Of a DNA stretch of 64,000 bases, positions 28,403-56,883 are shown one piece after another. Source of the stretch: an uncultured Rickettsiales bacterium. Lineage in GTDB: Bacteria; Pseudomonadota; Alphaproteobacteria; Rickettsiales; JABDBP01. The DNA lies in contig CAYVHI010000003.1 in the NCBI GenBank assembly GCA_964450945.1, positions 2,191 to 66,190 on the forward strand, in the 5' to 3' direction. A program made the position numbers and the translations under genes. The notes under the pieces were generated by a model. It was not told the origin of the DNA, did not search any database, and saw only the letters and a program-made list of their open reading frames with translations. Numbering within the stretch: the stretch's first letter is position 1; every line of letters starts with the position of its first letter.

Positions 28403-28407
28403 GGTAG

Positions 28408-29723: not shown

Positions 29724-29733
29724 TTTTACCTAT

Positions 29734-30159: not shown

Positions 30160-30160
30160 T

Positions 30161-30255: not shown

Positions 30256-30377
30256 TTAAAAAACCTCCCTCTTGCAAAACGCTTTAAAACCCTCTAAAAC
30301 AGGCTCCCAATAACAATTTATTGGAGTTTATGATGTTTTTTTCAGCAGCAAAAAAGAAAATCGAAGGAAGCGAAAAT

Positions 30378-31803: not shown

Positions 31804-31827
31804 GAAATCATTAGAAAGAGGCTACTT

Positions 31828-32292: not shown

Positions 32293-32294
32293 AA

Positions 32295-33395: not shown

Positions 33396-33451
33396 TTCTT
33401 TATCCAGGTCGCTCTGAGCTTGTAGCTCAACCGCTCCCGCGTAATAATCTC

Positions 33452-33754
33452 CTAGAACTTATAGAAATAGGTGTAGAGGATATTTCTTAAGAGATAGAGC
33501 AGCGCGAATAATATAATCGGGGAAAGATCGATACCGCCAAGGTCGCCTAAAATACGGCGGGTTACCTTCCTTATTGGCCTGATAACCGGCTCCACCAGGC
33601 GGTAAAGTATTTCATTCACCTTGCGGATAAACGGATTATAATCATTCACTATTTTAAAATAGCTGAGCCAGCCCATGATTATCCAGATAATGATAACCCA
33701 GATGTAAAAGCTGATGAAAAAAGAAATAAAATCTATAAATGGGTTGATGTTCAT
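33452..33754 (-). CDS. YggT family membrane protein
   Basis: 100-aa protein with 'P.I..V..IT.P.L.P.R....LGG.D.SP....ALL'-like sequence. Confidence 0.75.
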   Translation of the reverse strand: MNINPFIDFISFFISFYIWVIIIWIIMGWLSYFKIVNDYNPFIRKVNEILYRLVEPVIRPIRKVTRRILGDLGGIDLSPIILFALLYLLRNILYTYFYKF

Positions 33755-33798
33755 GAGATGTTTTATATTCTATTTAATGTAAATTGGGAAGGTACTAA

Positions 33799-34221
33799 AT
33801 GTTTACATGCACCATAAGAGTTGAATGCGATGTCGCAAAAAGGCTTGCAGAATTTATTGGCCCGTGCAGTAACCTGCATGGTTACCATATTGCCATAGAG
33901 GCAACTTTCACCAGTAAGAAGCGTGGAAAATCAGGTGAAGTTATAGATTATTATAAGCTGAAGGAGCTGCTGGGGAACTGGATAAATAAAAACTGGGACC
34001 ACAACACGCTCTTAAATAAAAAAGATAAAAAACTCGGTGATGCAATTTCCAACATAACCGGCCAGAAAGTTTTTTACTTTGATGGTGACCCATCTGCCGA
34101 AAATATAGGTGAATATGTCTTAAAGGAAGTTTGCCCAAGGCTGTTTTCAAAACTTGGTGTTACATGTATAAATGTGAGGGTTTATGATAACCCAGGCGCC
34201 TTTGTAGAAGCTATGGGGTAG
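33799..34221 (+). CDS. queD: 6-carboxytetrahydropterin / 6-pyruvoyl-tetrahydropterin synthase family (QueD-like)
   Basis: 'C.NLHGYH' catalytic Cys-His motif, 'DHN.L', 'SAENI', 140 aa. Confidence 0.75.
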   Translation: MFTCTIRVECDVAKRLAEFIGPCSNLHGYHIAIEATFTSKKRGKSGEVIDYYKLKELLGNWINKNWDHNTLLNKKDKKLGDAISNITGQKVFYFDGDPSAENIGEYVLKEVCPRLFSKLGVTCINVRVYDNPGAFVEAMG

Positions 34222-34223
34222 GC

Positions 34224-34320
34224 TTTTTATACCCATTCGGTATGTTCCCTGCAAAGTTTTCTAACTTTGCAATGGAACGGTGCTTCGCACACTCATGGCT
34301 GGCAGGTTTTCCTAACCTGC
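34224..34320 (+). repeat. Family-2 double-hairpin intergenic repeat, full copy
   Basis: Hairpin 1 is 34250-34271 ('tgcaaagtt-ttct-aactttgca'). Spacer is 'atggaacggtgcttcgcacactcatggctg'. Hairpin 2 is 34302-34320 ('gcaggtt-ttcct-aacctgc') and abuts the pdxH stop. Confidence 0.7.
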
Positions 34321-34919
34321 TATGGATATAACATAATTATTTGCCACTTACCTTTCTCATCCTTGCTGTAAAGATGGCGCTGGTGAAGGCGGCTTTCGCC
34401 TTCCTGCCAGAATTCTATTTTTTCTGGCACCAAACGGAAACCTGACCAGTGCTTTGGCCGTGGAATATCATCACCAAGTTCCGCTTCCATAATATCAACC
34501 TGTTCTATGAACGCCCGGTAATCCTTTAAAACCTCAGACTGGCGGGAAGCAATCGCCCCAAGCCGGCTTCTTGGATGGCGGGAATTAAAATAAGCATCAG
34601 CCTCTTTTTCGGTAACCATTATTACCTCTCCCTCAATACGTATCTGCCTGCCTAAAGCCTGCCAGTAAAAACATAGTGAAGCATATGGGTTATTAAGAAG
34701 TTCCTTGCTTTTGCGGCTGCCAAGGTTGGTGAAGAAACAAAAACCCCTCTCATTATATTTTTTGAGGAGAACCATGCGGGCTGAAGGTTTTCCATCTTTG
34801 GTGGATGTGGCAAGGCACATGGTGGAGGCATGTTCTTCGCCCAATTCTTTTGCTGCGTTAGAATACCATTTTGAAAAAAGCTGGAATGGATTTTTACTTC
34901 CTTGTGATTTCATCCCCAC
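34320..34919 (-). CDS. pdxH: Pyridoxamine 5'-phosphate oxidase
   Basis: 'A..LAT....G.PS.R.VLLK......F.F.TN..S.K', 'IE.WQ....RLH.R..Y'. Confidence 0.9.
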   Translation of the reverse strand: MGMKSQGSKNPFQLFSKWYSNAAKELGEEHASTMCLATSTKDGKPSARMVLLKKYNERGFCFFTNLGSRKSKELLNNPYASLCFYWQALGRQIRIEGEVIMVTEKEADAYFNSRHPRSRLGAIASRQSEVLKDYRAFIEQVDIMEAELGDDIPRPKHWSGFRLVPEKIEFWQEGESRLHQRHLYSKDEKGKWQIIMLYP

Positions 34920-35304
34920 TTACACCTTTCTCACTTTTTTCGTCTTTTTCTATAAGATTTATCGTACGCCAGTTTATTCTGAAGCCAAAACCTTCCAGCC
35001 TTCCTGAACAGGAGATGGCATCATCTTTGCGCGGAAATTCTGCTATCACAACCTCCTGATTATCGATTCTTGTGTGAATAAAATTTGCATGCCCGGGAAA
35101 TCTGGATAACCCCTGATTGATAAGTGAAACAAATTCCTTTACAGACATTCCATCATTAAATTCCCTGCCGCTTAAAGGCATCCTTACACACCAGGTTTCT
35201 CCTCTGCCATCATCTGATAATAGCGTTGGAGTAAAAAAGGTTGCACGCATGCCGCTTACGACCTTAGCATAATCTTCGATTGTTCTTGGAGTTGTTTTAC
35301 TCAT
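34894..35304 (-). CDS. Hypothetical protein (136 aa)
   Basis: ORF only. Its 3' end overlaps the pdxH start by 26 nt. Confidence 0.4.
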   Translation of the reverse strand: MSKTTPRTIEDYAKVVSGMRATFFTPTLLSDDGRGETWCVRMPLSGREFNDGMSVKEFVSLINQGLSRFPGHANFIHTRIDNQEVVIAEFPRKDDAISCSGRLEGFGFRINWRTINLIEKDEKSEKGVSGDEITRK

Positions 35305-35374
35305 TTTCTTTAACCTTATTTTAATGAATATAAATATTTTATAAAGTATGTTCCATAATTAAAATTAATAAAAT

Positions 35375-37378
35375 ATGAATAGACGAAATAAACCACAAAA
35401 ACTCAGAATTACCTCAGATTTCCAGCCGGCTGGCGACCAGCCGACCGCTATTGCTGCGCTTGTTGGGGGGCTAAAGAAGAAAGAGAAGGACCAGGTTTTA
35501 CTGGGGGTTACAGGTTCAGGGAAGACCTTCACCATGGCGCATATAATAGAAAAAACCCAGCGTCCGGCGCTTATTTTAGCACCAAATAAAACGCTTGCCG
35601 CCCAGCTTTATGGGGAGATGAAAAGCTTCTTCCCGGAGAATGCGGTGGAATATTTTGTTTCATATTATGATTATTACCAGCCGGAAGCCTATATCCCCAA
35701 AAGCGATACATATATCGAGAAAGATTCTTCAATAAATGAGCAGATAGATTTGCTCCGCCACTCTGCAACGCGTGCGCTGCTTGAAAGAAGAGATGTGATT
35801 GTGGTGGCCTCCGTTTCATGTATCTATGGCCTAGGGAGTCCGGAACTTTATTTGCAGATGGTGGTGCCACTAAAGAAAGGTGACAGGATTTCTATTTCAT
35901 CACTGGTTAAAAAACTGGTGGAGATACAATATGAGAGGAATGATATAGATTTTCACCGCGGCACATTCCGTCTGCGCGGTGATAGCCTAGATATTTTTCC
36001 ATCACACTATCAGGACAGGGCGTGGAGACTTTCTTTCTTCGGAGATGATGTTGAAAACATATATGAGTTTGACCCGCTGACTGGAGAAAAAACTGATGAG
36101 ATGGAAGAGATTACAGTGTTTGCCAACAGCCACTATGTAACACCACGCCCAACAATGCTGCAAGCGATAGAGCTTATAAAAGAAGAACTGAAAGACCGGC
36201 TGAAATTTTTTGAGAAGAGTGGAAAACTGTTGGAAGCACAAAGACTGGAACAGCGCACCCAGTTTGATCTGGAGATGATTGTTGAGACAGGTGTTTGCAA
36301 AGGGATTGAAAACTATTCACGCTATCTCTCCGGCAGGAATGCCGGTGAACCACCGCCAACATTATTTGAATATCTGCCGAAAGATGCGTTGCTATTCATA
36401 GATGAAAGTCACGTGGGCGTGCCGCAGATTAACGGCATGTATAACGGCGACAGGGCAAGAAAGACAACACTGGTTGAACATGGTTTCCGCCTGCCTTCAG
36501 CGCTTGATAACCGGCCCTTAAAATTTGAAGAGTGGGAAAAGATGCGCCCACAAACTATTTATGTTTCTGCAACACCTGGCCCATGGGAACTGAAACAGAC
36601 TAGCGGAGAAATCGTTGAGCAATTAATAAGGCCTACCGGGCTTATCGATCCACCATGCGTAGTAAAACCTGCTGAAACGCAAGTGGATGATTTGCTTGCT
36701 GAATGTAATGAGGTGGTGAAGAAAGGTGGGCGCGTGCTGGTTACCACACTTACAAAACGCATGGCTGAAGATTTAACCCAGTATATGCAGGAAGCCGGGC
36801 TAAAGGTTGCCTATATGCACTCTGACATTGAAACATTGGAGCGCATAGAAATAATTCAAAATTTAAGGAAGGGTGAGTTTGATATACTGGTTGGGATAAA
36901 CCTGCTCCGTGAAGGGCTGGATATTCCTGAATGTATGCTGATGGCGATTTTAGATGCTGACAAAGAAGGTTTCTTACGCTCTGAAACTTCACTTATCCAA
37001 ACTATAGGAAGAGCTGCAAGGAACGTGGACAGTAAAGTGATACTCTATGCAGATAAAATCACCGGTTCAATGCAGCGTGCGATGGCAGAAACCGACCGAA
37101 GGAGAAAATTGCAGCAGGAATATAATGAAAAGTACGGCATTACGCCTGAGAGTATAAAAAAGAAAATTTCCGAAGTTCTTGATAGTGTTTATGAACAAGA
37201 CCATGTGACTGTGAAAGTTGATGATGAGATAAAACATCTTGATGAAAAGGCTTTAAAGAAACATCTGGATAAGCTGCATAAAGAAATGCTGAAATTTGCT
37301 GCTGACCTTGAATTCGAAAAAGCTGCAAAACTGCGTGATGAAATAAAGAAACTAGAACAGATGAAGCTGGCTGTCTAA
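35375..37378 (+). CDS. uvrB: Excinuclease ABC subunit B
   Basis: 'GDQP.AI..L', '[10 protein letters not shown]', '[10 protein letters not shown]', 'DESH', and a C-terminal UVR motif 'LEFE.AA.LRD.I'. Confidence 0.97.
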
Positions 37379-38274
37379 CGGTGGAATGTATTTTTACCGC
37401 CGCCTGGGCCACCGCCACCAGGATTGCCACCACCTGGGTTGCCAGTGTTTCTGCCATCATAGATAGTGGCAAAATCATCCCCAACTTGGGCAAATTCAGG
37501 AATAAGCCTTGCCCTTATGGCATGATCAAAATTTGAAAAGCTGGTAAAATATTTCATAGGATTCTTAAGTTCTTCTACAACCATTGAAGTGAGTGCGGCA
37601 CGAAGTGCAGGAGAAAGAGAGTTTATATCTGCTTCTAAAACACTTGGATCAACGCGGTCCATCATATATTTTTTAAGAACGGCGCCTAAAAGATTCTGCC
37701 CTATGGAAATTTCACCTACCGCTTTTTCAGACCTATCAAGGTAAGCATCCACACCAACAGTATCTATGCAGGTTTTATGAGTGGAGAGGAATGGTATTGT
37801 CTCGCCAATCATGATTCTCCTCATCATTACAGGGAGTTTATCGCTTTGCCCTGCCGCCCGGCTTCTTTCAGCTATCTCACTATCAACAACAATGGAATAT
37901 GCGGCTCTTTTAGTGCTTGAATCAAGATCAACTAAATTAAGGCCAAAACTGTATCTGTGGGTTCCAGCAGGTAGACCAAGATACCTTGGGTCATCAGGAA
38001 TTCCGTTCTCAAAAAGTTTTGGCTGGATATAGAGCAGCAGGGGGTCGCGGTCATGGTATATTTCTTTCAGCAGGGCTCCTGTTGCTGCCATACCTGAGGG
38101 TGATGGAGGGAATAATGCTATCAGCGCATTAAAAACTCCATCGATAAATTGAACTGCCTCAGCAGAAGTCCTGGCTTTAGGGGCATTAAGATATTCCGGC
38201 CTTTTCAATACACTGAAAATACCATTCATTATCCCTGCTATAATCTGTTTTTCTATATGTGCATCATGTGGCAT
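37375..38274 (-). CDS. Orphan protein, paralog A (299 aa), Gly-rich C-terminus
   Basis: Shares 'APK/V...A...DG/N.F' and '[12 protein letters not shown]' blocks with the next gene. The C-terminus is '[16 protein letters not shown]'. Confidence 0.6.
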
Positions 38275-38296
38275 AGTTTAAATATACGCCTATAAG

Positions 38297-38318
38297 GTTA
38301 AAAAACGGTAAATAAACT
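38297..38318 (-). promoter_or_regulatory. Shared 22-nt upstream motif, copy 1 (plus-strand 'gttaaaaaacggtaaataaact')
   Basis: Exact 22-nt repeat with 39209-39230. It lies 23-44 nt upstream of the paralog A start codon. Confidence 0.5.
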
Positions 38319-38329
38319 GGCAGTTTAGA

Positions 38330-39184
38330 TTAATCGCGCATTATATCATCAATGGCTGGGCCGGGCTTGTTAATATAGCTTTTAGCAAAATCCTTTGTGA
38401 GATTCCTAAAATCATTAGTAAGATGTGCTCCATCTTCGCCGCGGTGCATTAGGTTTGCTGCCATCTGCATTGGAAGCAGCTTTAATAGTAAAAGAACCTT
38501 TGGCAGTTCTTTTCCTAACTGTCCCTTAAGTTCTTTTGCTTCCTGCTGGATAATTTCTGTTGGAACGAGATCAATTAAAACCTTATCTGTAATTGCTGCT
38601 ATCATTTCATGGCCGGCCATTATCTCACCTACCGCTTTCTCGGATCTGTTTTCCATATAATCCATGGGTATAGATTGCATGCAAGTTGCCTTTAACCCGG
38701 CATGGATAAGGATTTCGTGAAAACTGATCAGCCTTAGGATTACCGGTGTAAGATCACTCTTTGAACCATCATGATCTTCCAAACCTTTGGAAATTTCAGT
38801 ATCAATTACCATCCCCATGTTGCTGGCTGGTGGAAATGTAGAATTACTTCCATAGTAAAAAAATGCCGTAGAGCCTTTTGATGAACCAAACTTACTGCCA
38901 AGCGCCATCACTCTTGGTGATGTTACGCCTGATTCATAAAGGCCTGCCTCATATAGGGTATGTTTGCGGTCAAAATAAAGTTGGTGGAGGAATTTTTTTA
39001 CATCAGGAGGGTAAAAGCCGCTCATATGAGTGAAAAGATTATCAAGCATACCTGCCGCCTGAACAGAAGATACTGGCGCCTTTATATACTCACTTGCATC
39101 CCCAAGCCTTTTTACAAAAAACTTTATAGCCTCGCCAACTATAAGTTTTTCCTGATAACCATCATTTTTTCTTTCAATTGTCAT
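38330..39184 (-). CDS. Orphan protein, paralog B (284 aa from the internal ATG)
   Basis: Start set at 'MTIERKNDGYQEK', which aligns with the paralog A N-terminus. Shared block '[15 protein letters not shown]'. Confidence 0.6.
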   Translation of the reverse strand: MTIERKNDGYQEKLIVGEAIKFFVKRLGDASEYIKAPVSSVQAAGMLDNLFTHMSGFYPPDVKKFLHQLYFDRKHTLYEAGLYESGVTSPRVMALGSKFGSSKGSTAFFYYGSNSTFPPASNMGMVIDTEISKGLEDHDGSKSDLTPVILRLISFHEILIHAGLKATCMQSIPMDYMENRSEKAVGEIMAGHEMIAAITDKVLIDLVPTEIIQQEAKELKGQLGKELPKVLLLLKLLPMQMAANLMHRGEDGAHLTNDFRNLTKDFAKSYINKPGPAIDDIMRD

Positions 39185-39208
39185 ATTAGGTAATAATAAA
39201 ATATTTAA

Positions 39209-39230
39209 GTTAAAAAACGGTAAATAAACT
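39209..39230 (-). promoter_or_regulatory. Shared 22-nt upstream motif, copy 2
   Basis: Identical to 38297-38318. It lies 25-46 nt upstream of the paralog B ATG and 9 nt upstream of the divergent 39239 ATG. Confidence 0.5.
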
Positions 39231-39238
39231 ACACTGGC

Positions 39239-39703
39239 ATGAAAATTGCTTCTTATTCCAGCATGATAGGAAGCGTTCAAAATAACCTGTATGCACTGGC
39301 ATCGAAAAGCGGTGTTCAGTTTGCTAACAAAGAATATGAAGATGGCAGCAATTTCTTCGGAAAAGACGGTCTTACAATTGGCGATGCCATAGATGCAATA
39401 AACCCGCTTAACAACCTGCCGGTTGTTTCAAGTTTTTTCGGTAATGATGAATCCCCCGCTTCTAAAATTGCCGGCAGTGCTCTTTATGGTGGACCGCTTG
39501 GCGTTGTTGCCTCGTTATTTAATTCATTTGTTGAAGGTGAAACAGGAAAAACTTTTGCAGATCATATAATTGCACTATTTGACAACAAGCCTGATGCTGA
39601 AGAAGCGGCCAGCAAATATGCCAAAGTGCAAAATTTCAATGAAGAAGTGAGCCAGGTTAAGGCAGAAGTACCAAAGTTTAATGTATTAGGTATTTCAGTA
39701 TAA
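39239..39703 (+). CDS. Hypothetical protein (154 aa)
   Basis: ORF only. Divergent from paralog B. No signal peptide or motif recognised. Confidence 0.4.
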   Translation: MKIASYSSMIGSVQNNLYALASKSGVQFANKEYEDGSNFFGKDGLTIGDAIDAINPLNNLPVVSSFFGNDESPASKIAGSALYGGPLGVVASLFNSFVEGETGKTFADHIIALFDNKPDAEEAASKYAKVQNFNEEVSQVKAEVPKFNVLGISV

Positions 39704-40315
39704 TTATTGAGGCCCCATCATGCATGGAAGAGGAGGGCCTTTCCCATCACCTTTCTTCCACTTACCATCACATTTCTTGCCTTCGAGATATTTATTGAAG
39801 ACTTTTACTGCACGTTCAGCATCCTGAGGATCCTGCAGGGCAGGGTTGGTGATTTGTGATTGTTCGCTGGCATGCTGAACTATATTAGCAGCAACAGAGC
39901 AGCCAAAGGTTTTGTGATTAAGGTTATATGGGTTAAAATGATTATCAACGTAGCGGCTGTCACAATCACGCGCAACTACACGCTCATAAACCAGAACAAC
40001 GTTGTTAGCACCAATCTTAGAAACCATTTTAAATGGAACGCCAAATTGGTTGAGGACTGATTTTACTTCATTGCAGGTATAGCTGTTATCAGTGCAGGTA
40101 AGTTCCGCCCTTGTTGGCTGATCACGGTTTATCCAGCCAGAAACATCACCAATAACAGAAGCGTTGCCGAGACCGAAAGATACGCGCTCAGCTGAAGCAT
40201 CAATAAGGTTGTTAGGATTGCCACGGGTAACATAAGCTTCTTTCTTAAGACGCTCACCACATGCGGAAACTAAAAGAGCAATAACAAGTGCAGATATGAT
40301 TGTAAGTTTTTTCAT
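39704..40315 (-). CDS. cpaD: CpaD-like pilus assembly lipoprotein
   Basis: Start set at 'MKKLTIISALVIALLVSAC' (lipobox), 1 nt after the secretin stop. 'GCSVAANIV......I.NPA.L..P.DA.RA..V...Y..G' resembles CpaD. Confidence 0.6.
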   Translation of the reverse strand: MKKLTIISALVIALLVSACGERLKKEAYVTRGNPNNLIDASAERVSFGLGNASVIGDVSGWINRDQPTRAELTCTDNSYTCNEVKSVLNQFGVPFKMVSKIGANNVVLVYERVVARDCDSRYVDNHFNPYNLNHKTFGCSVAANIVQHASEQSQITNPALQDPQDAERAVKVFNKYLEGKKCDGKWKKGDGKGPPLPCMMGPQ

Positions 40316-40316
40316 G

Positions 40317-41642
40317 TTAATCCACCATATATCCAAAGGTTCCTTCAATTGCAGATTCGCCACCAGGAAGCTGGGACTGTATGCCCCTTCTTCCAGACAT
40401 AGCACCCAGTGAGCCGAGGAAAATATTTTCCAGGTTGCTAGGTGTGCGGTATTCATCAGTAGGCATCTTGATATCCTGCGATTTAACAGGATCAACAAGG
40501 TAAGGAGTTACAGAAATAACCAGCTCTGTCTCATCACGCTCAATGCTTGAGCCACGGAGAATCGAGCCAAGAATAGGGATATTGGAAAGCGGGGTTGCAC
40601 CGCCGGATTCAACATTTATGTTATCTTTCATGAGTCCTGCAATCATGAAGCTTTCGCCTGGTGCAAGCTCAACCGTTGTTTTTGCCTTGCGCGATGAAAT
40701 GCCCGGAACAGAAAAACCAGCAGTTACAACAGCGCCTTTTTCAGAAAGCTGAGAAACTTCAGATTCAACAGTTAGGCGGATGCGGTTCTTGGAAAGAACA
40801 ATTGGAGTGAACTCTAGGCCAACACCATAATTCTTATAATTAACCGCAAGACCTTCACGTGATTGCATAGGAACAGGAATCTGGCCGCCGGAAAGGAAAT
40901 TTGCGGTTTCACCGGAGATAGCTGTCAAATTTGGTTCGGCAAGAACTTTGAACAGGCCATCTTTTTCAAGGGAAGCAAGACCAACAGCGCCATATTTTTT
41001 CAGTGCAGTGCGCTGAACTTCGCCAACACGGACACGCAGCATTACCTGCTGTGAATTCCTTATCTGCATCATGTTTAGGATTTCTTCACGGCTGCCGTGG
41101 CCACGCACATGTTGTTCGACAATATGCATTATACGGCCAGCAATTTCAGCATCAGAAACCATGCCGCTTACAGCAAGGCTTTTGTTTCCGGTTCTTTTTA
41201 TCCCGACAGTTTCGTTAGGGAAATATGTTTTTATTGTATTTTCTATATCAGAATATTCACCACGGTAACCGGTTTGTGTAACAATTTTCTTTTTCTTTTG
41301 TTTAGGTTTTTTCTTAACAGGTGCTTTTGGTGGTTCAGGGGCAAAAGCAGGTTCAGGAGGTGCTACAGCGATTGCAACTGGGGCAGGCGGAGGTGAGGGG
41401 GGAGCTTCAGCCGCCATTGGCATAACCGGGGCAACAACAGGAGCAGGAGGCATTTCTGAGCCAATAGGAGCAACAGGCATTGCCATCATTGGTGTGGGTG
41501 GAGCAGCAGGTGCTGCCATAGGCGCCACCTCATTATTTGTGTTAACACCTAAATTATCAGAGGTTTCCTGAGCGCGGATATTCGCAACTGAAAAAATGAA
41601 AAAGGCCGCACTTATTAAAATGTATTTTCCAACAACCTTCAT
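40317..41642 (-). CDS. cpaC: Tad/Flp-type secretin (CpaC/RcpA family) with ~100-aa Met/Pro/Ala-rich N-terminal insert
   Basis: Signal peptide and a BON-like segment. 'LAEPNLTAISGETANFLSGGQIPVP', 'YKNYGVGLEFTP', 'VPGISSRKAKTTVELAPGESFMIAGL', 'IPILG.ILR', 'ELVISVTPYLV'. Confidence 0.85.
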   Translation of the reverse strand: MKVVGKYILISAAFFIFSVANIRAQETSDNLGVNTNNEVAPMAAPAAPPTPMMAMPVAPIGSEMPPAPVVAPVMPMAAEAPPSPPPAPVAIAVAPPEPAFAPEPPKAPVKKKPKQKKKKIVTQTGYRGEYSDIENTIKTYFPNETVGIKRTGNKSLAVSGMVSDAEIAGRIMHIVEQHVRGHGSREEILNMMQIRNSQQVMLRVRVGEVQRTALKKYGAVGLASLEKDGLFKVLAEPNLTAISGETANFLSGGQIPVPMQSREGLAVNYKNYGVGLEFTPIVLSKNRIRLTVESEVSQLSEKGAVVTAGFSVPGISSRKAKTTVELAPGESFMIAGLMKDNINVESGGATPLSNIPILGSILRGSSIERDETELVISVTPYLVDPVKSQDIKMPTDEYRTPSNLENIFLGSLGAMSGRRGIQSQLPGGESAIEGTFGYMVD

Positions 41643-41890
41643 GGCACCAAACCCTTAAAAAATAGATTAATTTTTAAAAACAAATCACTGCTGCACTTAA
41701 TAAGCAGACCCTAATCGTATATTGCTGCGGCGACAAATAGTCAAGCGATATTCCCAGCCCGCTATTCATAATCATGCTTATTATACAGATAGTTGCACAA
41801 CCAACAAAAGCCCCCGTCTTTTTGGGGTAATATATTGAGATATAGGTATTTTATCTTTAATAAAAGGTTCACAAAAAATGCTGGTGGTTT

Positions 41891-41899
41891 TGCTATAAT
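41891..41899 (+). promoter_or_regulatory. Candidate extended -10 promoter element 'TGcTATAAT'
   Basis: Perfect TGnTATAAT about 118 nt upstream of the 42017 GTG. No good -35 at 17-bp spacing, which extended -10 promoters tolerate. Confidence 0.35.
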
Positions 41900-42016
41900 T
41901 TACGCTTCAAGGTATTCCAGACGCGGACAAACAACTATAACTTTCCGTGTCGGGAGTTATGGTTCCGCTGAAAAGGGACCTTGGAATCCTCGAGCCGTTA
42001 GAAAGGACGGTGGCAG

Positions 42017-42310
42017 GTGGCGAAGCTTTCGGATTTTGTCTCAATCGAGACGCAGCCGGATGGGAGCGTGAAACTCGTGCTCACCAAGAAGGCGGTGGAA
42101 GGCGACTACCAAGTGTACGGCGGGGGGGACATCACCCTCGAGCCGTGGGAACTTGACGCGAAGTCTCCTGAAATCAAGCTGGAGGCCCAAGAGTTCGAGA
42201 TCGATGTCGTGAACGACATCGGCACCTTGGTTGCCGAGGGTAAGATCAAGCTTACCCACAAGCTCGAGATCACGGAAGATCCCGAGTTCGAAGACGACGA
42301 AGACGAATAA
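42017..42310 (+). CDS. 97-aa hyper-acidic protein of unknown family, encoded with foreign (GC3-rich) codon usage
   Basis: GTG start with 'AAAGGA' ending 9 nt upstream. 26 D/E versus 9 K, no R or C. The tail is 'EDPEFEDDEDE'. All 7 Ile are ATC and 8/9 Lys are AAG. Confidence 0.6.
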   Translation: MAKLSDFVSIETQPDGSVKLVLTKKAVEGDYQVYGGGDITLEPWELDAKSPEIKLEAQEFEIDVVNDIGTLVAEGKIKLTHKLEITEDPEFEDDEDE

Positions 42311-42365
42311 GAGAATTAAAAAAAACCAAATTTATTGAAACTATTTATTTAAATTATCCGGTTTT

Positions 42366-42394
42366 CCCCCTCATGATGAGGGGGTTTTTGTTTT
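42366..42394 (+). terminator. Rho-independent terminator
   Basis: 'ccccctca-tga-tgaggggg' is an 8-bp GC-rich stem (42366-42384), followed by 'tttttgtttt'. Confidence 0.75.
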
Positions 42395-42447
42395 AAAGAC
42401 CTATAATACTAGTTGCGAAAAAAGCTGATTTTGCTTATTTTGCCCGC

Positions 42448-44004
42448 ATGACTTTTGTTGATGAAAAGATACTTATCCTCGATTTTGGTTCCCAGCTTAC
42501 CCAGCTTATCGCCCGAAGGGTGCGTGAAAATGGCGTATATTCAGAAATTAGGCCCTATAATATAAGTGATAAAGAAATAAAGGCGTTTGGCGCGAAAGCT
42601 ATAATACTTTCCGGCGGTCCAGCCAGCGTTTCCGGCCACAAAGCACCAACAGTTAATAAAAAAATATTTGAAATGGGTGTTCCCATACTTGGCATATGCT
42701 ACGGGCAACAATTGATGTGTGATCTGCTCGGCGGTAAAGTGGAAAAAGCCAAGAAAAGGGAATTCGGCCGGGCATTCGTTGATGTGAATTCTGAATCTGA
42801 ATTATTTAAAGGTGTTTGGAAAAAAGGTGAGAAGCACCAGGTGTGGATGAGCCATGGTGATAGTGTTGTGACGTTGCCAAAAGGTTTTAAAGCGGTGGCG
42901 GGAACTGAAGGTGCACCATTTGCAGTGGTTGCTGATGAAAACAGGAGATTCTATGGAATACAGTTCCATCCTGAAGTTGTTCATACACTTGAAGGAAAAG
43001 AACTCTTAAAGAATTTTACCCACCGGATTGCTGGCTGCAAAGGCAACTGGAACATGGCAGCATTCCTTAAAGAAGAAATTAAAAAGATAAAGCAGCAAGT
43101 GGGAAATAAAAAAGTTATCTGCGCGGTTTCCGGTGGGGTGGATTCATCTGTGGTGGCAGCACTTATACATAAAGCCATTGGCAACCAACTTCACTGCGTT
43201 TTTGTTGATACCGGCCTGCTGCGCCTTGATGAAGCAAAACGCGTGAAAAAGATGTTCGCTGAGAACTTTCATATAAAAATAAAACAAATAGATGCTAGTA
43301 AATTATTCCTCGGCCGCCTAAAAGGGGTGACTGACCCGGAGAAGAAGCGAAAAATTATCGGCAAAACGTTCATTGATGTTTTTGAGAAAGAAGCAAAGGC
43401 CATAAAAGGAGTGGAATTTTTAGCGCAAGGCACGCTTTACCCTGATGTTATTGAATCAGTTTCATCATTCGGCGGCCCATCTGTTACCATAAAATCGCAC
43501 CACAATGTTGGCGGCCTGCCAGCCCGCATGAAACTTAAACTTATTGAGCCGGTGCGTGAATTATTCAAAGATGAAGTGAGAAGGCTGGGATTAGAACTTG
43601 GTATGCATTTAGATATGGTGAAACGCCATCCATTCCCGGGGCCGGGGCTTGCCATCCGCATGCCGGGTGAAATAACAAAGGAAAAACTGGAAATCCTGCG
43701 CCAGGCAGATGCAATTTTCATCGAAGAGTTGCATAAAGAGGGGCTTTATGACCAGATATGGCAGGCATATGCAGCGTTATTACCGGTAAAAACCGTTGGT
43801 GTTATGGGTGACAGCCGCTCTTATGAATATATATGCATGCTCCGCGCCGTTACCTCAACCGATGGCATGACTGCAGATTTCTTTGATTTTCAACATAGTT
43901 TCCTAAGCCGCGTTAGTAACCGGATAGTCGGTGAAGTTAGAGGAATAAACAGGGTGGTTTATGATGTAACATCAAAACCGCCAGCAACAATCGAGCTGGA
44001 ATAA
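42448..44004 (+). CDS. guaA: GMP synthase (glutamine-hydrolysing)
   Basis: 'ILDFGSQ.TQLIARR.RE', 'GICYG.Q', 'SGGVDSSV', and C-terminal 'KPP.TIE.E'. Confidence 0.97.
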
Positions 44005-44126
44005 AACAAATCTAGCTGGCATCTTGCTTGAAGAAAAATGTGCGAATCCTCATGTACCTTCTTTGTACACTCCGGTTCTGCGCGCATTTTCTTCCGCGTA
44101 TCTGCTTAGCTAGATTTGTTTTATTC
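43999..44126 (+). repeat. Family-1 nested-hairpin intergenic repeat, copy E
   Basis: Perfect 19-bp arms 'gaataaaacaaatctagct' and 'agctagatttgttttattc'. The left arm includes the last codon and TAA of guaA. Core is 'aatcctcatgtac-cttcttt-gtacactccggtt'. Confidence 0.85.
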
Positions 44127-44311
44127 ATATTGATTATAAGCCAAAATCCTTAAGTTTCAGTTTGTTAATCATTTGTTAATCATTTTGTGAAAAAATGACG
44201 TTTAAATAGACACATAACGTCTTTCTTTATTTTTATTCATAATACTTTATGGTATCTTTAAAGAAGGGTGTATAGAAATGTCTATGCAACTCAAGAGGTT
44301 AGATTAGAAGA

Positions 44312-46273
44312 GTGAATTTGACGGGTGACAACAAGGTAAAGCCAGGCGCGGAAGGTACAACGCCTGTTCAACCCGGTATGGTGAAGCCAGCTGGTGCTCC
44401 TGCCGCTGCGGCACCTGTTTCTCCGCCATCTGCTGCTGCAACTAAACCAGCAACTACTGCGCCAAAAGCTACACCTGGAATGCCTGCTTCTCCACAAGCG
44501 GCCGTTCCGCCAAAAGCACCAACTACAACAGCTCCTGCACCAGTGCAGAACCGGCCGCCGCAGGCGCCAGCAGATCCGACTAAAAAAATAACCAGCCATA
44601 TAGGCGAAGTTATGGTGGAGAAAGGTCTTATCTCAAAAGACCAGCTGGAAATTGCACTTAAGGAGCAAAAAGAGCAGGAAGGCACCAAACGCATGATGCT
44701 TGGAAGCATACTTGTAGAAATGGGTTTCATTACGGAAAGTGCGCTTGGCGAAGTTCTGGCTGAATCTACCGGTATTGAAAAATTCGATATGAAATCTGCT
44801 GTGCTTGATCCGAAGCTGGTCAAGCAAATCCCAAAGCATGTGGCAGAAAGATATAAGATGATACCTATAACGATTATCGGGGAAAGCATACAGATTGCCA
44901 TATCAGACGTTTATAACGTGCTGGCGATTGATCAGGCGCACAAGTATTTCCCAAAAAACTTCAAGATCGTTCCCGTTTATGCCGCTGAAGCGGAAATCTC
45001 GGAACTGATAGACCATTACTATGATTATGAAATGTCGGTTGACGGCATCTTAAAAGAAATCGAAACCGGAATAGCGGAAAAGAAAGAACTAAGCGGTGAA
45101 GCAGAAGGATATATCAACCCGACTGTACGCCTTGTGGATGCTCTTCTGGTTGATGCGATAAAACAAGGAGCTTCCGATATCCACCTTGAGCCGGAAGGAG
45201 CTTTCCTGCGCTTACGCTACCGTATTGACGGGCAGATGATGCAGATAAGAAGTTTTCATAATGATTACTGGCCGGCGATAGCCGTTCGTATAAAAATCAT
45301 GTCAGGCATGAACATCGCCGAGGTAAGGAACCCGCAGGATGGACGCATTGCCTATAATGTGCTTGGCAAAGAAGTGGATTTCCGTGTTTCCACCCAGCCG
45401 ACAGTTTACGGCGAAAATATCGTTATGCGTATCCTGGATAAGAAGAAATCACTGGTGACGCTTGATAAGCTTGGGTTCTCTGAACATAACGAAAAAGTAC
45501 TAAAGAAACTTCTGAAAAGACCAGAAGGAATTATAATAGTGACTGGTCCTACCGGTAGCGGTAAGACTACAACGCTTTATTCAATCCTCAGCTATATAAA
45601 TTCGGTTGATGTTAATATCATGACACTGGAAGATCCGGTGGAATACCAGTTGCCGATGATACGCCAATCAAGCGTGCGTGAAGGCGGGATGAATTTTTCT
45701 ACAGGTATGCGCTCACTTATGAGGCAGGACCCTGATATCATATTCGTGGGTGAGGTGCGTGATGAAGACACGGCAAATATGGCACTCCGAGCTGCCATGA
45801 CCGGCCACCAGGTGTTTACTACACTGCACACCAACGATGCGATAGGCGCTATACCACGCCTGGTGGATATTGGTGTGCAGCCGAGCCTTCTTGCCGGCTC
45901 ACTCATCTGCTGCATGGCGCAAAGGCTTGCAAGAAAATTATGCTTAAGTTGCAGGAAAGAAAAAATTGCAACACCTGAAGAATGTAAAATTCTAGGTGTT
46001 GACCCTAAATCTCCACCGAAGATATATGAGCGTGTAGGATGTGATAAATGTAATGGCGGGTATAAGGGCCGAGTCGCAGTTGCAGAGATACTGCCGGTTG
46101 ACAGGGAAATGGATGAATTAATAGCCAATCGCGCAACCCGCAAGGTTATACTTAACCATGCAATTTCAAACGGGTTTGTTACTATGGTGCAAGATGGCAT
46201 CAATAAAGTTTTATTAGGGCAGACTGACCTGGAAGAACTTATCAATACCGTTGATATGACCGAACGCCTATAG
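44312..46273 (+). CDS. pilB: Type IV pilus assembly ATPase (PilB/MshE-like) with ~95-aa Pro/Ala-rich N-terminal extension
   Basis: Walker A 'GPTGSGKTTTLYS', 'EDPVE', 'GEVRD', 'TGH.VF.TLHTND', and a tetra-Cys 'CLSC...CDKC'. The GTG start is uncertain; in-frame ATG alternatives lie downstream. Confidence 0.9.
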   Translation: MNLTGDNKVKPGAEGTTPVQPGMVKPAGAPAAAAPVSPPSAAATKPATTAPKATPGMPASPQAAVPPKAPTTTAPAPVQNRPPQAPADPTKKITSHIGEVMVEKGLISKDQLEIALKEQKEQEGTKRMMLGSILVEMGFITESALGEVLAESTGIEKFDMKSAVLDPKLVKQIPKHVAERYKMIPITIIGESIQIAISDVYNVLAIDQAHKYFPKNFKIVPVYAAEAEISELIDHYYDYEMSVDGILKEIETGIAEKKELSGEAEGYINPTVRLVDALLVDAIKQGASDIHLEPEGAFLRLRYRIDGQMMQIRSFHNDYWPAIAVRIKIMSGMNIAEVRNPQDGRIAYNVLGKEVDFRVSTQPTVYGENIVMRILDKKKSLVTLDKLGFSEHNEKVLKKLLKRPEGIIIVTGPTGSGKTTTLYSILSYINSVDVNIMTLEDPVEYQLPMIRQSSVREGGMNFSTGMRSLMRQDPDIIFVGEVRDEDTANMALRAAMTGHQVFTTLHTNDAIGAIPRLVDIGVQPSLLAGSLICCMAQRLARKLCLSCRKEKIATPEECKILGVDPKSPPKIYERVGCDKCNGGYKGRVAVAEILPVDREMDELIANRATRKVILNHAISNGFVTMVQDGINKVLLGQTDLEELINTVDMTERL

Positions 46274-46283
46274 TTATAATACC

Positions 46284-46400
46284 AACAGATTTTTTGCTTA
46301 TTACTTTGCCTTAGCTACGGGCTCGGTTTGCTCATGTACTATTAAAGTACATTCCGCCACCTCGCCTTGCACTTCCTAGTACTAAACAAAAAAATCTGTT
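46284..46400 (+). repeat. Family-1 nested-hairpin intergenic repeat, copy B (between pilB and pilC)
   Basis: Arms 'aacagatttttt' and 'aaaaaatctgtt', extendable with a bulge. Core is 'gctcatgtac-tattaaa-gtacattcc...cttgcacttcctagta'. Confidence 0.75.
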
Positions 46401-46427
46401 TTAGATAATGAATTAAAAATGTTTTAA

Positions 46428-47633
46428 ATGATCAATTATAAATATTCAGCAGTAAATGATCTTGGCAGAACCATCAAAGGAACAATGGCTGCCGCAAATT
46501 CTGATGATCTTGAAGCGCGCTTAAAAGAAATAGGCCTTGATATTATTGACTACAGGGAAATAGAGGACAAGAAGACCTCTTTCTTTGCCAAGAATATTAC
46601 GGCGCGCGATTTAATAATGTTCTGTATCCACATGGAACAGCTTGATAAAGCCGGGGTTCCGCTTATGGATGCGCTGGCTGACCTTCGCGATACTTCTGAT
46701 TCTCCCAGACTGAAAGAACTGATGGCGCAGATTTATGAATCAGTAAAGGGCGGAAAAATGCTTTCAGCCGCCCTGGCAGAACACCCGCGCATATTTGGCG
46801 AGGTGTTTACAGGTCTGGTTGCTGCTGGTGAGAAAACAGGTCATATGTCTGATTCATTTGGACACCTTTCTCATCACATAAAGTGGAATGAAGATATAAG
46901 ACGTAAAGTGAAAAAATCGATACGTTATCCGATAATACTTCTGGTGATGATGGTTGCCGTTATAAGTATAATGATGCTTTTCGTTGTGCCGCAGCTTTCC
47001 AGCTTCATGCTTTCGCAAGGATTTGACCTGCCACTGCATACACGCGCGCTTATATGGACATCTGACACATTTGTGAAATACTGGTATGCCATACTTGGCA
47101 TACCGACAGTAGCTGTTGTTGTTATAATAATGATGTACAGGAGTTCCGAAGATTTTGCCTATCAGGTGGATAAGATTGCGCTCAAAACACCATTTGTCGG
47201 AAAAAATATATCCAAGATTGATCTGGCGCGGTTCTCCCAGTTCTTTTCGGTGACTTTCATGAGCGGCATAGATATCCTTGAGTGTTTGAGGACAGCCCAG
47301 AATGTGGTGGGTAACCGCATCATAAAAGAAGCAATCCAATATGTGCGCCGCAGCGTTTCTGAAGGAAACTCGCTTACTTCATCCCTTAAAGTTTCCAACC
47401 AGTTTCCAAGCCTGGTAATAAGAATGTTTAAAATCGGGGAAGAAAGCGGCGAGATGGGAAAAGCCCTAGATAACATAAACTTTTTTTATGAACGTGAGGT
47501 CAATGATTCTGTTGAATCAACAGTAGAGTTGATACAACCGGCACTAACGATTATACTGGGTGGAGTTTTATTCTGGATTACGGCGGCGGTATTTGGCCCG
47601 CTTTATGATAGTTTCACTAAGATGTCATTTTAA
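46428..47633 (+). CDS. pilC: Type IV pilus platform protein (PilC/GspF family)
   Basis: 401 aa with two GspF repeats ('F...L..L..AG.P....L', 'GE.SG.....L') and three TM segments. Confidence 0.9.
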   Translation: MINYKYSAVNDLGRTIKGTMAAANSDDLEARLKEIGLDIIDYREIEDKKTSFFAKNITARDLIMFCIHMEQLDKAGVPLMDALADLRDTSDSPRLKELMAQIYESVKGGKMLSAALAEHPRIFGEVFTGLVAAGEKTGHMSDSFGHLSHHIKWNEDIRRKVKKSIRYPIILLVMMVAVISIMMLFVVPQLSSFMLSQGFDLPLHTRALIWTSDTFVKYWYAILGIPTVAVVVIIMMYRSSEDFAYQVDKIALKTPFVGKNISKIDLARFSQFFSVTFMSGIDILECLRTAQNVVGNRIIKEAIQYVRRSVSEGNSLTSSLKVSNQFPSLVIRMFKIGEESGEMGKALDNINFFYEREVNDSVESTVELIQPALTIILGGVLFWITAAVFGPLYDSFTKMSF

Positions 47634-51650: not shown

Positions 51651-52793
51651 TTAAAAATCTTCGTTCTTTGGTTTTTGCGGGGTTGTCTGAGCGGGTATGT
51701 AATTGGACTTGCTGAGTGAGGGGTTACCAGATTTTTCCTGGCTTATCTTGAGGCGTAGGTTACCAGGATTATCAGATTCGTTGAGTGCTGTTTCTTCAGT
51801 TATTTTACCTTTCAAGAAAAGATCCAGCAGATATTGATCAAAACTTATCATTCCCTGGTCTTTATTTTTTTCCATCATTTCCTTAATTTCTTTAATCTTA
51901 CCTTCTTCAATAAGTTTTTTGACCAAACCCTGATTAAGCATTATCTCTATAGCCAAACACCGCATGCCGGAAATGCTTGGAACCAAGCGCTGGGATATGA
52001 CAGCCTTAAGGTTTTGTGAAAGGGTGAGTAATGTCTGTTTTGACATTTCTTCAGGGAAGAGATTGATGATTCGCTCTACAGCCTGGTTTGAGTTATTGGC
52101 ATGCAGGGTTGCCACGCATAAATGCCCAGTCTCACAAAACTGGATGGCACTTTCCATTGTCTCACGATCACGTATTTCACCTATGACTATGACATCAGGA
52201 GTCTGCCGCAATGCATTCTTAAGAGCGGTGCCATAAGAATATGTATCTATACCGATCTCACGCTGGGTGAAGATGCAGTTTTTATGCTCGTGGATGAATT
52301 CAATGGGGTCTTCAACAGTAATTATATGGCCGGAGCCATACTGGTTCCTATAGCCTAACATCGCCGCAAGGGAAGTTGATTTACCAGCTCCGCTGGCACC
52401 GACCATAAGGACAAGGCCTCGCTTTTCCATGATGAGTTTACCGTAAATCTCAGGCAGTCCAAGTGATTCGAAAGTAGGTATTTCCACGCGTATTCGGCGT
52501 ATTACAATTCCGCGGTTATGCTGCTGGTGAAAGAAATTAGCGCGGAAACGCTTGCCGTGATAGGAATGGATGGCGACATTCAATTCCAGTGTGGATTCAA
52601 ACTCGCTCCTCTGGCTTTCATTCAGCATTTCAGCTATGAATGAATTTATATCTTCATTGGTAAGTTTTGCATTGCCGGCATGAACGATTTTATTTTCTAT
52701 CCGCAAGCTCGGAGGATAACCTACTGTCAGGTAAATATCGGAAGCCTCCTTATTTACCATTTCCAGTAAAAGATCTGCAATTTTTACTGTCAA
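51651..52793 (-). CDS. pilU: PilT-family retraction ATPase, PilU-like
   Basis: 'ASDIYLTVGYPP', Walker A 'GASGAGKSTSLAAM', 'EDPIEF', 'GEIRD.ET', 'TGHL..ATLHAN'. Confidence 0.85.
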   Translation of the reverse strand: MTVKIADLLLEMVNKEASDIYLTVGYPPSLRIENKIVHAGNAKLTNEDINSFIAEMLNESQRSEFESTLELNVAIHSYHGKRFRANFFHQQHNRGIVIRRIRVEIPTFESLGLPEIYGKLIMEKRGLVLMVGASGAGKSTSLAAMLGYRNQYGSGHIITVEDPIEFIHEHKNCIFTQREIGIDTYSYGTALKNALRQTPDVIVIGEIRDRETMESAIQFCETGHLCVATLHANNSNQAVERIINLFPEEMSKQTLLTLSQNLKAVISQRLVPSISGMRCLAIEIMLNQGLVKKLIEEGKIKEIKEMMEKNKDQGMISFDQYLLDLFLKGKITEETALNESDNPGNLRLKISQEKSGNPSLSKSNYIPAQTTPQKPKNEDF

Positions 52794-53903
52794 TTAAAAC
52801 TCCATTTTTTTGCTTTGTATCATGTGGGGATTTTGTTGTGCTGGTGCTGTGCCGCCTGGCTTTGATTCATCTTCACCAGAATCAAGATTTAACACCGATC
52901 TTGCAGCCTGCGCGGTGATTACGCCCTGCTGCATAAGATTGTTTACACAATCTTTCATGGTTTGCATGCCAACCTTTGAGCCAACCTGCATAAGTGAATA
53001 TATTTGCGGAACCTTACCTTCGCGTATCATGTTACGTATTGCCGGAGTACCAAGCAGGATTTCATGTGCCGCCACGCGGCCGCTGTTATCTGCCTTCTTG
53101 ATAAGCGTTTGTGCAATTACAGCTTCCAGAGTACTACCTAACATGGACATGATGAGGGCTTTACTCTGTGCTGGGAAAGCATCGATAATCCTGTCTACAG
53201 TTTTTGCAGCAGAGTTGGTGTGTAGTGTTCCCATAACCAAGTGCCCGGTTTCTGCGGCAGTCAGCGCCAACTGTATGGTTTCAAGGTCGCGCATTTCGCC
53301 CACCAGAATTACATCCGGATCTTCACGCAGTGCGCTTTTAAGGGCCCTGGCAAAAGACATCGTGTTACTGCCAAGCTCACGCTGGTTTATCAGAGCTTTA
53401 TTGGATTTATGGACAAACTCTACCGGATCTTCGACTGTGAGGATATGTTTTGGAAAATTTTTATTTATGTGGTCAATAATAGCTGCAAGAGTTGTTGATT
53501 TACCGCTTCCCGTAGGGCCGGTAACCAGAACAAGACCCTTGTGTAAAGAAGCAATTTTCTGGAGGATTGGCGGGGTATTAAGCTCCTGCAATGTCAGTAT
53601 GCGGTCCGGAATGGCACGAAAAGCAGCCGATGGACCATTAAGTGTGGTAAAAGCATTTACCCGGAAACGCAGTTCGCTGAACTGGATGGCAAAATCTAAC
53701 TCAAGATCCCTTTCATAATCGGCGCGCTGATTCTCTGTCATTATCGAATAAAGAAGTGATTTCACCGCATCTGCCGTAAGGACATCAAGTTTAAGGTGAA
53801 CGATTTCGCCGTTTATGCGCATAATCGGCGGCTGGCCGGAAGAAAGATGTAGATCAGAAGCCTTATTTTTCTTGGTCAACTGTAGTAATTCAAGTACTTC
53901 CAT
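52794..53903 (-). CDS. pilT: Twitching motility ATPase PilT
   Basis: 'ASDLHLSSG.PP..R..G', Walker A 'GPTGSGKSTTLAA', 'EDPVEF', 'GEMRDLETI', 'TGHLV.GTLHT', 'AHEIL'. Confidence 0.92.
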   Translation of the reverse strand: MEVLELLQLTKKNKASDLHLSSGQPPIMRINGEIVHLKLDVLTADAVKSLLYSIMTENQRADYERDLELDFAIQFSELRFRVNAFTTLNGPSAAFRAIPDRILTLQELNTPPILQKIASLHKGLVLVTGPTGSGKSTTLAAIIDHINKNFPKHILTVEDPVEFVHKSNKALINQRELGSNTMSFARALKSALREDPDVILVGEMRDLETIQLALTAAETGHLVMGTLHTNSAAKTVDRIIDAFPAQSKALIMSMLGSTLEAVIAQTLIKKADNSGRVAAHEILLGTPAIRNMIREGKVPQIYSLMQVGSKVGMQTMKDCVNNLMQQGVITAQAARSVLNLDSGEDESKPGGTAPAQQNPHMIQSKKMEF

Positions 53904-56878: not shown

Positions 56879-56883
56879 TTATT

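Follow-up and report, generated by a model that had tools for sequence, protein, structure and literature searches.

A nested hairpin behind guaA and its six counterparts

The window analysed here is a 64,000-nucleotide (64-kb) stretch of contig CAYVHI010000003.1 (assembly GCA_964450945.1) from an uncultured Rickettsiales bacterium. Directly 3′ of its guaA gene lies a 128-nt nested hairpin, copy E (43999–44126), one of seven intergenic repeats, copies A to G, that are the subject of this study; all coordinates given for them are on the + strand. Copy E has a minimum free energy of −52.8 kcal/mol (z −9.25). Its 5′ outer arm (43999–44017) holds the last guaA codon and the stop (GAA TAA, 43999–44004) and is complementary at 19 of 19 positions to the 3′ outer arm (44108–44126), whose last six bases, TTATTC, complement the host GAATAA. 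Within the outer helix, model alignment places a left internal-loop box, AUCUUGCUU (44021–44029), which is the local version of the family box GCUGCGUU. The right internal-loop box, CGCGUAUC (44095–44102), reads CUCCUAGU in other window copies and CGCCUUGC in the family. Between boxes and centre runs a middle helix, P2, in whose predicted fold a copy-specific 5′ arm (44030–44044) pairs with a 3′ arm at 44081–44094. The conserved core (44047–44075; pattern match at 44049–44072) contains the invariant columns of the seed alignment. It begins with a bulged U (44047) and comprises closing pairs CC/GG, a 5′ loop UCA (44050–44052), a stem in which UGUAC (44053–44057) pairs with GUACA (44065–44069) below a variable apical loop (44058–44064), and a 3′ loop CUCC (44070–44073).

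The remaining copies occupy unrelated spacers. Copy A (7327–7460) lies between an rluA-family gene and gpmI, copy B (24072–24199) between two minus-strand genes, and copy C (29598–29727) between a pilin-cluster gene and rpiB, with the upstream TAA stop (29599–29601) as its first paired triplet. Copy D (31677–31806) separates glyA from nrdR and holds the glyA TAA stop (31677–31679) within its outer arm. Copy F (46283–46404) sits between the genes for an MshE-like ATPase and a T2SSF platform protein, and copy G (56755–56882) between convergent rpmB (L28), whose TAA stop is at 56755–56757, and a gyrB/parE-like gene. The replichore has uniform GC skew, and all seven point the same way on it; relative to local transcription six are sense and only copy B is antisense.

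An earlier reading made without database searches (the sequence-only reading) had placed seven nested hairpins at these sites with every core on the + strand, and all seven are there in that orientation. For copy A its location held, but the palindrome is larger than described (7330–7454) and reaches into the upstream coding sequence, overlapping the last codons. The strings that it had assigned to copies D and E and to copies A and F are in fact shared by the copies at 29599 and 43999 and by those at 24075 and 31677.

Several lines of evidence set these copies apart from the rest of the window. The core pattern CTCAYGTA-N(3-10)-TACRYTC has five exact matches, against 0.00 expected from shuffled sequence. 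Copy A, whose core reads GTCATGTAG...CTACACTCC, carries the compensated stem variant GTAG/CTAC (at 7387) and copy G carries GTAT/ATAC, bearing out the compensatory change that had been described for the central hairpin. Every copy folds as one long nested hairpin (z −4.0 to −9.9), with none of 200 shuffles folding as well, and the long inverted repeats of the copies rank top in an unbiased inverted-repeat scan of the window. We built a covariance model, R1, from 23 members of the family described below, all from other organisms and with no window sequences. Run over the 64 kb with filters off, R1 returned exactly these seven copies, all on the + strand, at E values of 3e-12 to 1.2e-3; the next match had an E of 1.6. 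Copy E scored 45.9 bits (E 7.5e-11), and copy A was the weakest, at E 1.2e-3. A second model, R2, built from 116 members with ERIC and copy A both left out, scored the seven at 34.6–68.3 bits (E 3e-19 to 6e-8), with a next match at E 2. Copy E reached 55.5 bits with R2, and copy A, absent from the training set, 34.6 bits (E 5.8e-8). The window copies measure 102–128 nt and align over the full length of the 128-position model. Their pairwise identity is 0.68 in the closing pairs and apical stem, 0.37–0.44 in the outer helices and 0.29 in the middle helix.

A cross-phylum family with a covarying fold

The same architecture recurs far beyond the window. The core CTCAYGTAC-loop-GTACRCTC(CG), the bulged U and the paired boxes GCUGCGUU and CGCCUUGC occur at more than 100 loci in isolates and metagenome-assembled genomes (MAGs) of many phyla. 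From the outside inwards, a family member comprises an outer helix, the left box opposite the right box, the middle helix and the conserved bulged U, followed by a covarying pair, a C-G pair, the UCA/CUCC internal loop, the YGUAC/GUACR stem and a variable apical loop. At about 128 nt, the unit matches the family model in length. An exact scan for CTCAYGTAC-N(4-9)-GTACRCTC, with one genome per species, found at least 120 stretches. Among the matches listed, 118 of 135 pattern sites fold as a long hairpin with the same long-range architecture, and the covariance model made 116 matches in 100 sources. Isolate hosts among them include Chlorobium ferrooxidans, Listeria cornellensis, several Bacillus and Paenibacillus, Oceanirhabdus, Klebsiella, Citrobacter, Pseudomonas, Mesorhizobium, Agrobacterium, Brucella and Nitrospira, and some of the MAGs that carry the element belong to Bacteroidales, Spirochaetaceae, Ca. 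Scalindua, Deferribacteraceae and Desulfobacterales. To control for specificity, we ran R2, which made one match in 462 kb of unrelated alphaproteobacteria-like sequence, consisting of 80 NrdR-based metagenome loci of at most 73% identity that are too distant for orthologous-site comparison.

The unit is a conserved, covarying single-strand fold. In the model-fitted alignment of 116 members, standard pairs fill 83.0% of cells against 52.2% after shuffling, a level reached by none of 500 shuffles, and double-sided changes occur at 40 of 40 model pairs. Because the alignment was fitted to the model, these figures lean towards the structure; with slid partners, a control that is equally fitted, 34–45% of cells are paired. 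In alignment A4, pairs 73–83 are 96–100% paired, with Y/R and N/N′ covariation. Of three explanations offered by the sequence-only reading, a structured element maintained by covariation thus agrees with the data, by which the family is genuine, its core being conserved and its helices variable yet strongly paired. MAFFT followed by RNAalifold on 106 members recovered the apical stem alone, because the arms cannot be aligned by sequence. A naive Nussinov consensus mispaired, and relaxed RNAalifold succeeded on the 23-member seed.

Further observations concern the distribution of the family. Head-to-tail arrays of two or three elements, reminiscent of BIME clusters, are present in Christensenellales, Bacillus caseinilyticus, Oceanirhabdus and Pelotomaculum (L034:962-1387, L043:3387-3672, L054:7689-7974 and L009:6154-6562; L numbers denote the collected loci). 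In viral and proviral sequence from IMG/VR (L212-L291) there are 65 model matches in 80 loci, and in Yersinia phage vB_YenM_42.18 a copy at 18096-18222 is covered by the annotation of a ‘hypothetical protein’; the repeats could travel between hosts by way of phages. At many loci (for example L056, L083, L100, L088, L006 and L053) the inverted repeat runs past the 128-nt model for 5–8 more bases after a 1–2-nt mismatch, and the true units may be longer or the palindromes may be growing outwards. In Pseudomonas rubra a family member has the integron-associated sRNA-Xcc1 (L040:4410-4492), which exceeds its Rfam gathering score at 70 bits, at a distance of 1.7 kb.

Relation to ERIC, a pyrH-frr repeat and annotated small RNAs

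By profile and fold, the seven copies classify as divergent members of a widespread family of hairpin repeats of about 128 nt, of which the enterobacterial ERIC is the best-known member. That the elements might match a described repeat family had been allowed for in the sequence-only reading, and the family model does take in ERIC/IRU: R2, trained without it, aligned to E. coli ERIC over its full length at 33.1 bits (E 1.9e-7). The centre of ERIC, as given by the ERIC1R and ERIC2 primers, occurs unaltered (100% identity) in 5424 of the 5426 complete genomes of E. coli. The modules of ERIC that correspond to those of the family are the left box GCUGCGUU, a core xUCAC-UAC-loop-GUA-GCUCC and the right box CGCCUU; an E. 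coli copy read directly has GCUGCGUU, aGUCACUUAC-UUAU-GUAAGCUCC and CGCCUUCC.

Like ERIC/IRU (about 127 bp), the window copies are each one long imperfect palindrome of similar length, are most conserved at the centre (0.68 in the core against 0.29–0.44 in the helices) and lie in intergenic positions or at gene 3′ ends; a cognate transposase is known for neither. Unlike in ERIC, the apical stem is GUAC/GUAC, where ERIC has CUUAC/GUAAG, and the 3′ loop is CUCC, where ERIC has CUC. Similarity at the level of BLAST is absent, and the arms are almost unrelated among copies of the window genome. The window cores (CTCAYGTAC...GTACRCTC) have no sequence similarity to the ERIC consensus centre, GAGCTTACATAAGTAAGTGAC. 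The hosts differ too. Reviews, including one from 2024, limit ERIC to Enterobacteriaceae and Vibrionaceae (PMC10969869), whereas the window belongs to a Rickettsiales-like alphaproteobacterial MAG, which groups with Rickettsiales and other alphaproteobacterial MAGs by guaA synteny with locus L021 and by its NrdR relatives. Core sequence and host range thus place the copies outside ERIC in the strict sense, but by profile they belong to an ERIC-like family that is defined here by that profile. Elements of this kind were already known; their cross-phylum reach and strand-specific constraints are not widely appreciated.

E. coli K-12 itself has a second relative. Between its pyrH and frr genes (NC_000913.3, about 192640–192765, minus strand; L295:241-366) lies a 126-nt hairpin repeat that has no annotation. 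This repeat carries the exact core CCTCACGTAC-TTTT-GTACGCTCCGG, has the length and fold of the family and scores 70 bits with R2. It is 56% identical to classical ERIC, with different box sequences. By BLAST it is found in 5426 of 5426 complete E. coli genomes at a median of 5 places; its copies are 80–90% conserved, at about 5 per genome, with relatives in Klebsiella, Citrobacter and a Yersinia phage. We found no published name for it.

Two RNAs that Rfam lists as small RNA (sRNA) genes, and not as a repeat family, resemble whole or partial copies of these repeats in sequence comparison. The Vibrio antisense RNA V_AS5 (RF02818) spans the whole E. coli ERIC (L124:259-382, +) at 46.4 bits (E 1.3e-8), and the Xanthomonas sRNA sX9 (RF02228) matches a Rhodanobacteraceae member (L079:1394-1472, +) at 36.9 bits (E 2.4e-5); both scores are below the gathering score, and the sX9 alignment covers only the 3′ half, from the core AUGUAC to the element's 3′ end. 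At gathering thresholds, the 4227 Rfam families had no match in the window and none at the elements in 15 family loci, and neither sX9 nor V_AS5 matched around copies E and F even at E values up to 1. The sX9 RNA, equal to the 3′ half of a family member, is a 75-nt species confirmed by Northern blot in Xanthomonas (PMC3300014). It ranks with the most prevalent of all bacterial sRNAs in Rfam (PMC9029176), a prevalence that a repeat should have. Together, sX9 and V_AS5 indicate that family members give rise to stable RNAs. Yersinia ERICs alter mRNA levels through an RNase E site (PMC3184786, PMC10969869). Searching the literature with core strings retrieved only primers, and in the literature searched we found no paper that unites these repeats across phyla or describes an ERIC superfamily, an absence that is not proof of novelty.

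Gain in this lineage and placement at stop codons

Tabulating empty sites in relatives, as had been proposed from the sequence, showed that the copies were gained in this lineage. Locus L205 shares the order secretin, peptidase A24, pilins, rpiB, glyA and nrdR (NrdR 80% identical) and has an 11-nt spacer at the site of copy C. The glyA-nrdR spacers of relatives L207 and L210 measure 6 and 29 nt and hold no element, and in L296-L298 a secretin gene is followed by guaA, with no element behind it. Overall, the empty sites in relatives are 3–29-nt spacers with no hairpin, and the covariance model found no significant match in 104 kb from these relatives (best E 0.29) as against seven in the 64-kb window. 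It is the presence of short empty spacers at the same places in syntenic relatives that establishes gain in the window lineage; these relatives, only 74–82% identical in protein, do not date it.

Comparison of filled and empty sites, reading the DNA directly, showed protein C-termini and the TAA stop to be unchanged: GuaA ends ...TIELE*, GlyA ...KFPIY(G/S)* and the pilin-like protein ...W(W/M)QY*. The unit therefore lies exactly behind the stop codon. The host TAA is nonetheless the first paired triplet of the hairpin, matched by a 3′ TTA in copies C (29599–29601 with 29721–29723) and D (31677–31679 with 31801–31803). In copy E the pairing extends to six bases, GAATAA at 43999–44004 with TTATTC at 44121–44126; guaA likewise ends in GAATAA in the relatives that lack the element, so this stop codon was there before it. 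Such pairing may have arisen when a few bases of the target were copied in inverted form, or the palindrome may have grown outwards later. TAA...TTA pairing is also seen in L021, a more distant Rickettsiales MAG in which an element directly follows guaA (stop at L021:5338-5340), through either orthology or a hotspot.

Placement near stop codons extends to the family, with an upstream stop codon at −20 to +22 nt from the element's 5′ end in 41 of 55 cases. Between co-directional genes, the CTCAYGUAC strand is mRNA-sense in 36 copies and antisense in 15; a further 14 copies lie in convergent and 8 in divergent spacers. Orientation is thus biased, and promoter-side (divergent) spacers are avoided. 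A strict tie of orientation to replication was considered and rejected. GC skew is also reversed in 12 of the 15 antisense copies, so orientation cannot separate transcription from replication.

Strand asymmetry of the arms

The helices do not treat the two strands alike. Each left arm was aligned to the reverse complement of its right arm, a strand-symmetric method, in L004-L123 and the window copies. On the CTCAYGTAC strand, isolated transition mismatches comprised 44 A·C against 4 G·T (binomial p 1.5e-9), spread along the arms; it is the complementary strand alone that reads them as G·U wobbles. That strand gives the better-folding outer arms in 83 of 118 elements, and the middle helix shows no difference. 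The skew holds in copies with the opposite mRNA-sense strand (15 vs 3), and known mutation biases predict the opposite skew. The complementary strand has purine-rich sequence in each of the conserved loops (GGAG/UGA and AAGGC/AACGCA); it is the conventional ERIC strand and the one matched by V_AS5. Paradoxically, the CTCAYGTAC strand is mRNA-sense in about 70% of copies between co-directional genes despite its A·C excess. We regard the skew as real though unexplained. It fits a single-stranded form of complementary polarity that is propagated or selected and whose copies survive mainly where that strand is not the mRNA.

Interpretation and alternatives

Taken together, the seven elements are probably a non-autonomous ERIC-type hairpin repeat that can fold as a single strand and is co-transcribed and processed. 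A factor acting in trans would spread the unit, or would once have done so, by recognising its conserved loops and core on a single strand that has folded. Older copies would stay foldable through compensatory change, possibly aided by template-switch ‘perfecting’ of quasi-palindromes. By analogy with its relatives, an RNA hairpin co-transcribed with the upstream gene might then be cleaved near the UCA loop, altering the fate of the mRNA. If so, the window hairpins are ordinary but old ERIC-type repeats, which annotation should mask and not call terminators or sRNA genes. One profile links repeats and ‘sRNAs’ that carry different names across phyla.

Some results weigh against this interpretation. 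The sequence-only reading had noted that the window has no transposase, and indeed none of its 60 open reading frames has a Pfam transposase domain or looks like a partner; genes between neighbouring copies elsewhere are ordinary (ABC ATPase, permease, GroEL and the like), and we rejected an autonomous element bounded by paired copies. The seven window junctions show no consistent target-site duplication. A TA target-duplication model was rejected likewise, with only 9 of 97 extended palindromes starting at TA and the window junctions not conforming. No recent near-identical copies occur in the window, which leaves current mobility unproven. The transition mismatches favour folding of the strand complementary to the usual mRNA-sense strand, which sits badly with a simple functional mRNA hairpin. 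Lastly, the covariance-model-fitted alignment does not show this skew overall; that alignment is biased towards G·U on the modelled strand.

More speculatively, and with doubts that outweigh our confidence, ERIC, the E. coli pyrH-frr repeat, sX9, V_AS5, the rhizobial and Nitrospira repeats and the window copies may form a single family that is ancient and crosses phyla. The invariant module of this family (bulged U, UCA/CUCC loop, GUAC stem and paired boxes) would dock a single widespread machinery that acts on one folded strand, the purine-loop and mostly mRNA-complementary one, and sets copies down exactly at stop codons, where it copies a few bases of the target in inverted form. Were this true, phylogenetic profiling over thousands of genomes could answer the 35-year-old question of what mobilises ERIC. 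In any case, the conserved module, the strand-specific mismatches and the stop-codon placement give a search for the spreading or processing factor something concrete to start from.

The two other explanations in the sequence-only reading made the core the mobile part and derived the arms from the host, either because the core lands in the loops of pre-existing hairpins or because insertion copies the target in inverted form. The anatomy of the unit speaks against the former, as three conserved modules (left box, core and right box) are split by a helix that is itself variable, which a single insertion into a hairpin could not produce, and the empty sites of relatives hold no hairpin to receive it. 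The latter is contradicted by copy A, whose arms, TTTTCCATTTAATC and AAAACGCT, recur between unrelated genes in another alphaproteobacterial MAG (L103) and so belong to the element. Nor are the arms, though strongly paired within each copy as had been described, always unrelated between copies: copies C and D (at 29599 and 31677) align end to end, arms included, and in Mesorhizobium and Nitrospira different species have conserved arms. The variable box-core helix and the recurring arms rule out both mechanisms as general explanations, and we consider a core-only mobile unit extremely unlikely. What such a model would account for is the complementarity of the outermost bases of the right arm to a pre-existing stop (TAA...TTA in copies C, D and E and in L021; GAATAA...TTATTC in copy E) and the continuation of the palindrome beyond the model after a mismatch in many loci. 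The outermost 3–6 bp paired with the host stop alone leave room for a contribution from the target. Selection for a host function, on the other hand, would make the elements cis-regulatory RNAs, recruited and kept as intercistronic or 3′ untranslated hairpins for mRNA stability, as processing sites or as couplers of translation termination to downstream events. The precise position behind stop codons, with the stop inside the outer helix, the strong covariation, the avoidance of divergent promoter regions and the processed RNAs known for relatives would all suit such a role, which is partly compatible with an ERIC-type repeat. Yet syntenic relatives lack the elements in the same spacers, the flanking genes are mutually unrelated (rluA, pilus genes, glyA, guaA, rpmB), dozens of phyla as well as proviral contigs carry the same unit, the strand favoured by the mismatch skew is usually antisense to mRNA, and orientation is biased by only about 70:30. 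As the primary explanation, host-serving regulation is therefore unlikely.

The strand-specific constraint raises a different alternative, namely that the elements are relics or substrates of single-stranded DNA transposition of the IS200/IS605 or REP-RAYT type, with a Y1/HUH enzyme elsewhere in the genome reading the bulged core hairpin on one strand. It would explain the A·C excess and the greater stability of outer arms on the complementary strand, the conserved bulged U and asymmetric loop beside a sequence-conserved stem, the single orientation of the window copies on a replichore of uniform GC skew, and the tandem arrays elsewhere, as seen with BIMEs. There is a broader likeness to REP/BIME, since both are high-copy extragenic palindromes at gene 3′ ends that form imperfect bulged hairpins, are sometimes arrayed in tandem and imply a strand-specific single-stranded form. 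REPs, however, are palindromes of 20–40 bp with a GTAG or CGTC tag (PMC3733652). The window copies, at 102–128 nt, are three to four times that length, are nested and have no such tag at their ends; no Y1 transposase or RAYT gene lies within the window, no cleavage-site motif was identified, and GC skew is not strictly followed across the family, given the 12 of 15 antisense copies in which it too is reversed. We judge this origin improbable, and retain the non-autonomous ERIC-type repeat as the preferred explanation.

Comparison with other known systems places the ERIC-type repeat further. As in miniature inverted-repeat transposable elements, the copies are present or absent at orthologous sites (absent in L205, L207, L210 and L296-L298), but no cognate insertion sequence or transposase sharing terminal repeats was found within the window, and no consistent target-site duplication at the seven junctions. 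Rickettsia palindromic elements (RPEs) are likewise palindromic repeats of 100–150 bp in Rickettsiales, and family members occur in a Rickettsia endosymbiont (L098) and a Rickettsiaceae genome (L080). Unlike RPEs, the window copies are intergenic and not in-frame, and the ATGAC motif that is the hallmark of RPE-4, -6 and -7 is not enriched in them. Integron attC sites share the imperfect palindrome folded as a single strand (57–141 bp), a strand-specific function and an orientation biased with respect to replication. In attC, it is the base of the hairpin (R″/R′ boxes) that is conserved and the apex that varies, the reverse of this family, and we rejected the identity on this pattern; the window has no integrase or cassette array. 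The copies were also rejected as intrinsic terminators, a terminator scan of 27001–47000 having flagged none of the four copies in that range. A canonical intrinsic terminator does lie upstream of guaA at 42366–42384 (CCCCCTCATGATGAGGGGG then TTTTTGTTTT), and the organism thus uses ordinary terminators unlike the repeats. Judged from its sequence, the core loop would be neither a K-turn nor a loop-E motif. The RU-3 repeat of Delihas is a BIME-like sequence and not a member of this family.

Neighbouring sequence and genes

The 3′ flank of copy D (window positions 31786–31815, GAAATCATT) repeats the left-arm sequence AAATCATT. The flank, which lies immediately ahead of the nrdR Shine-Dalgarno sequence, could thus pair locally with the right arm of the copy, as an alternative structure or by chance.

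Genes for pili and secretion are unusually dense for a Rickettsiales-like genome and lie at 24216–29601, 39704–41642, 44312–47633 and 51651–53903. These clusters encode two secretins, an A24 prepilin peptidase, the MshE-like ATPase with a motif that binds cyclic di-GMP, the T2SSF platform protein, a CpaD-like protein and two more T2SSE ATPases, and five of the seven repeats flank them.

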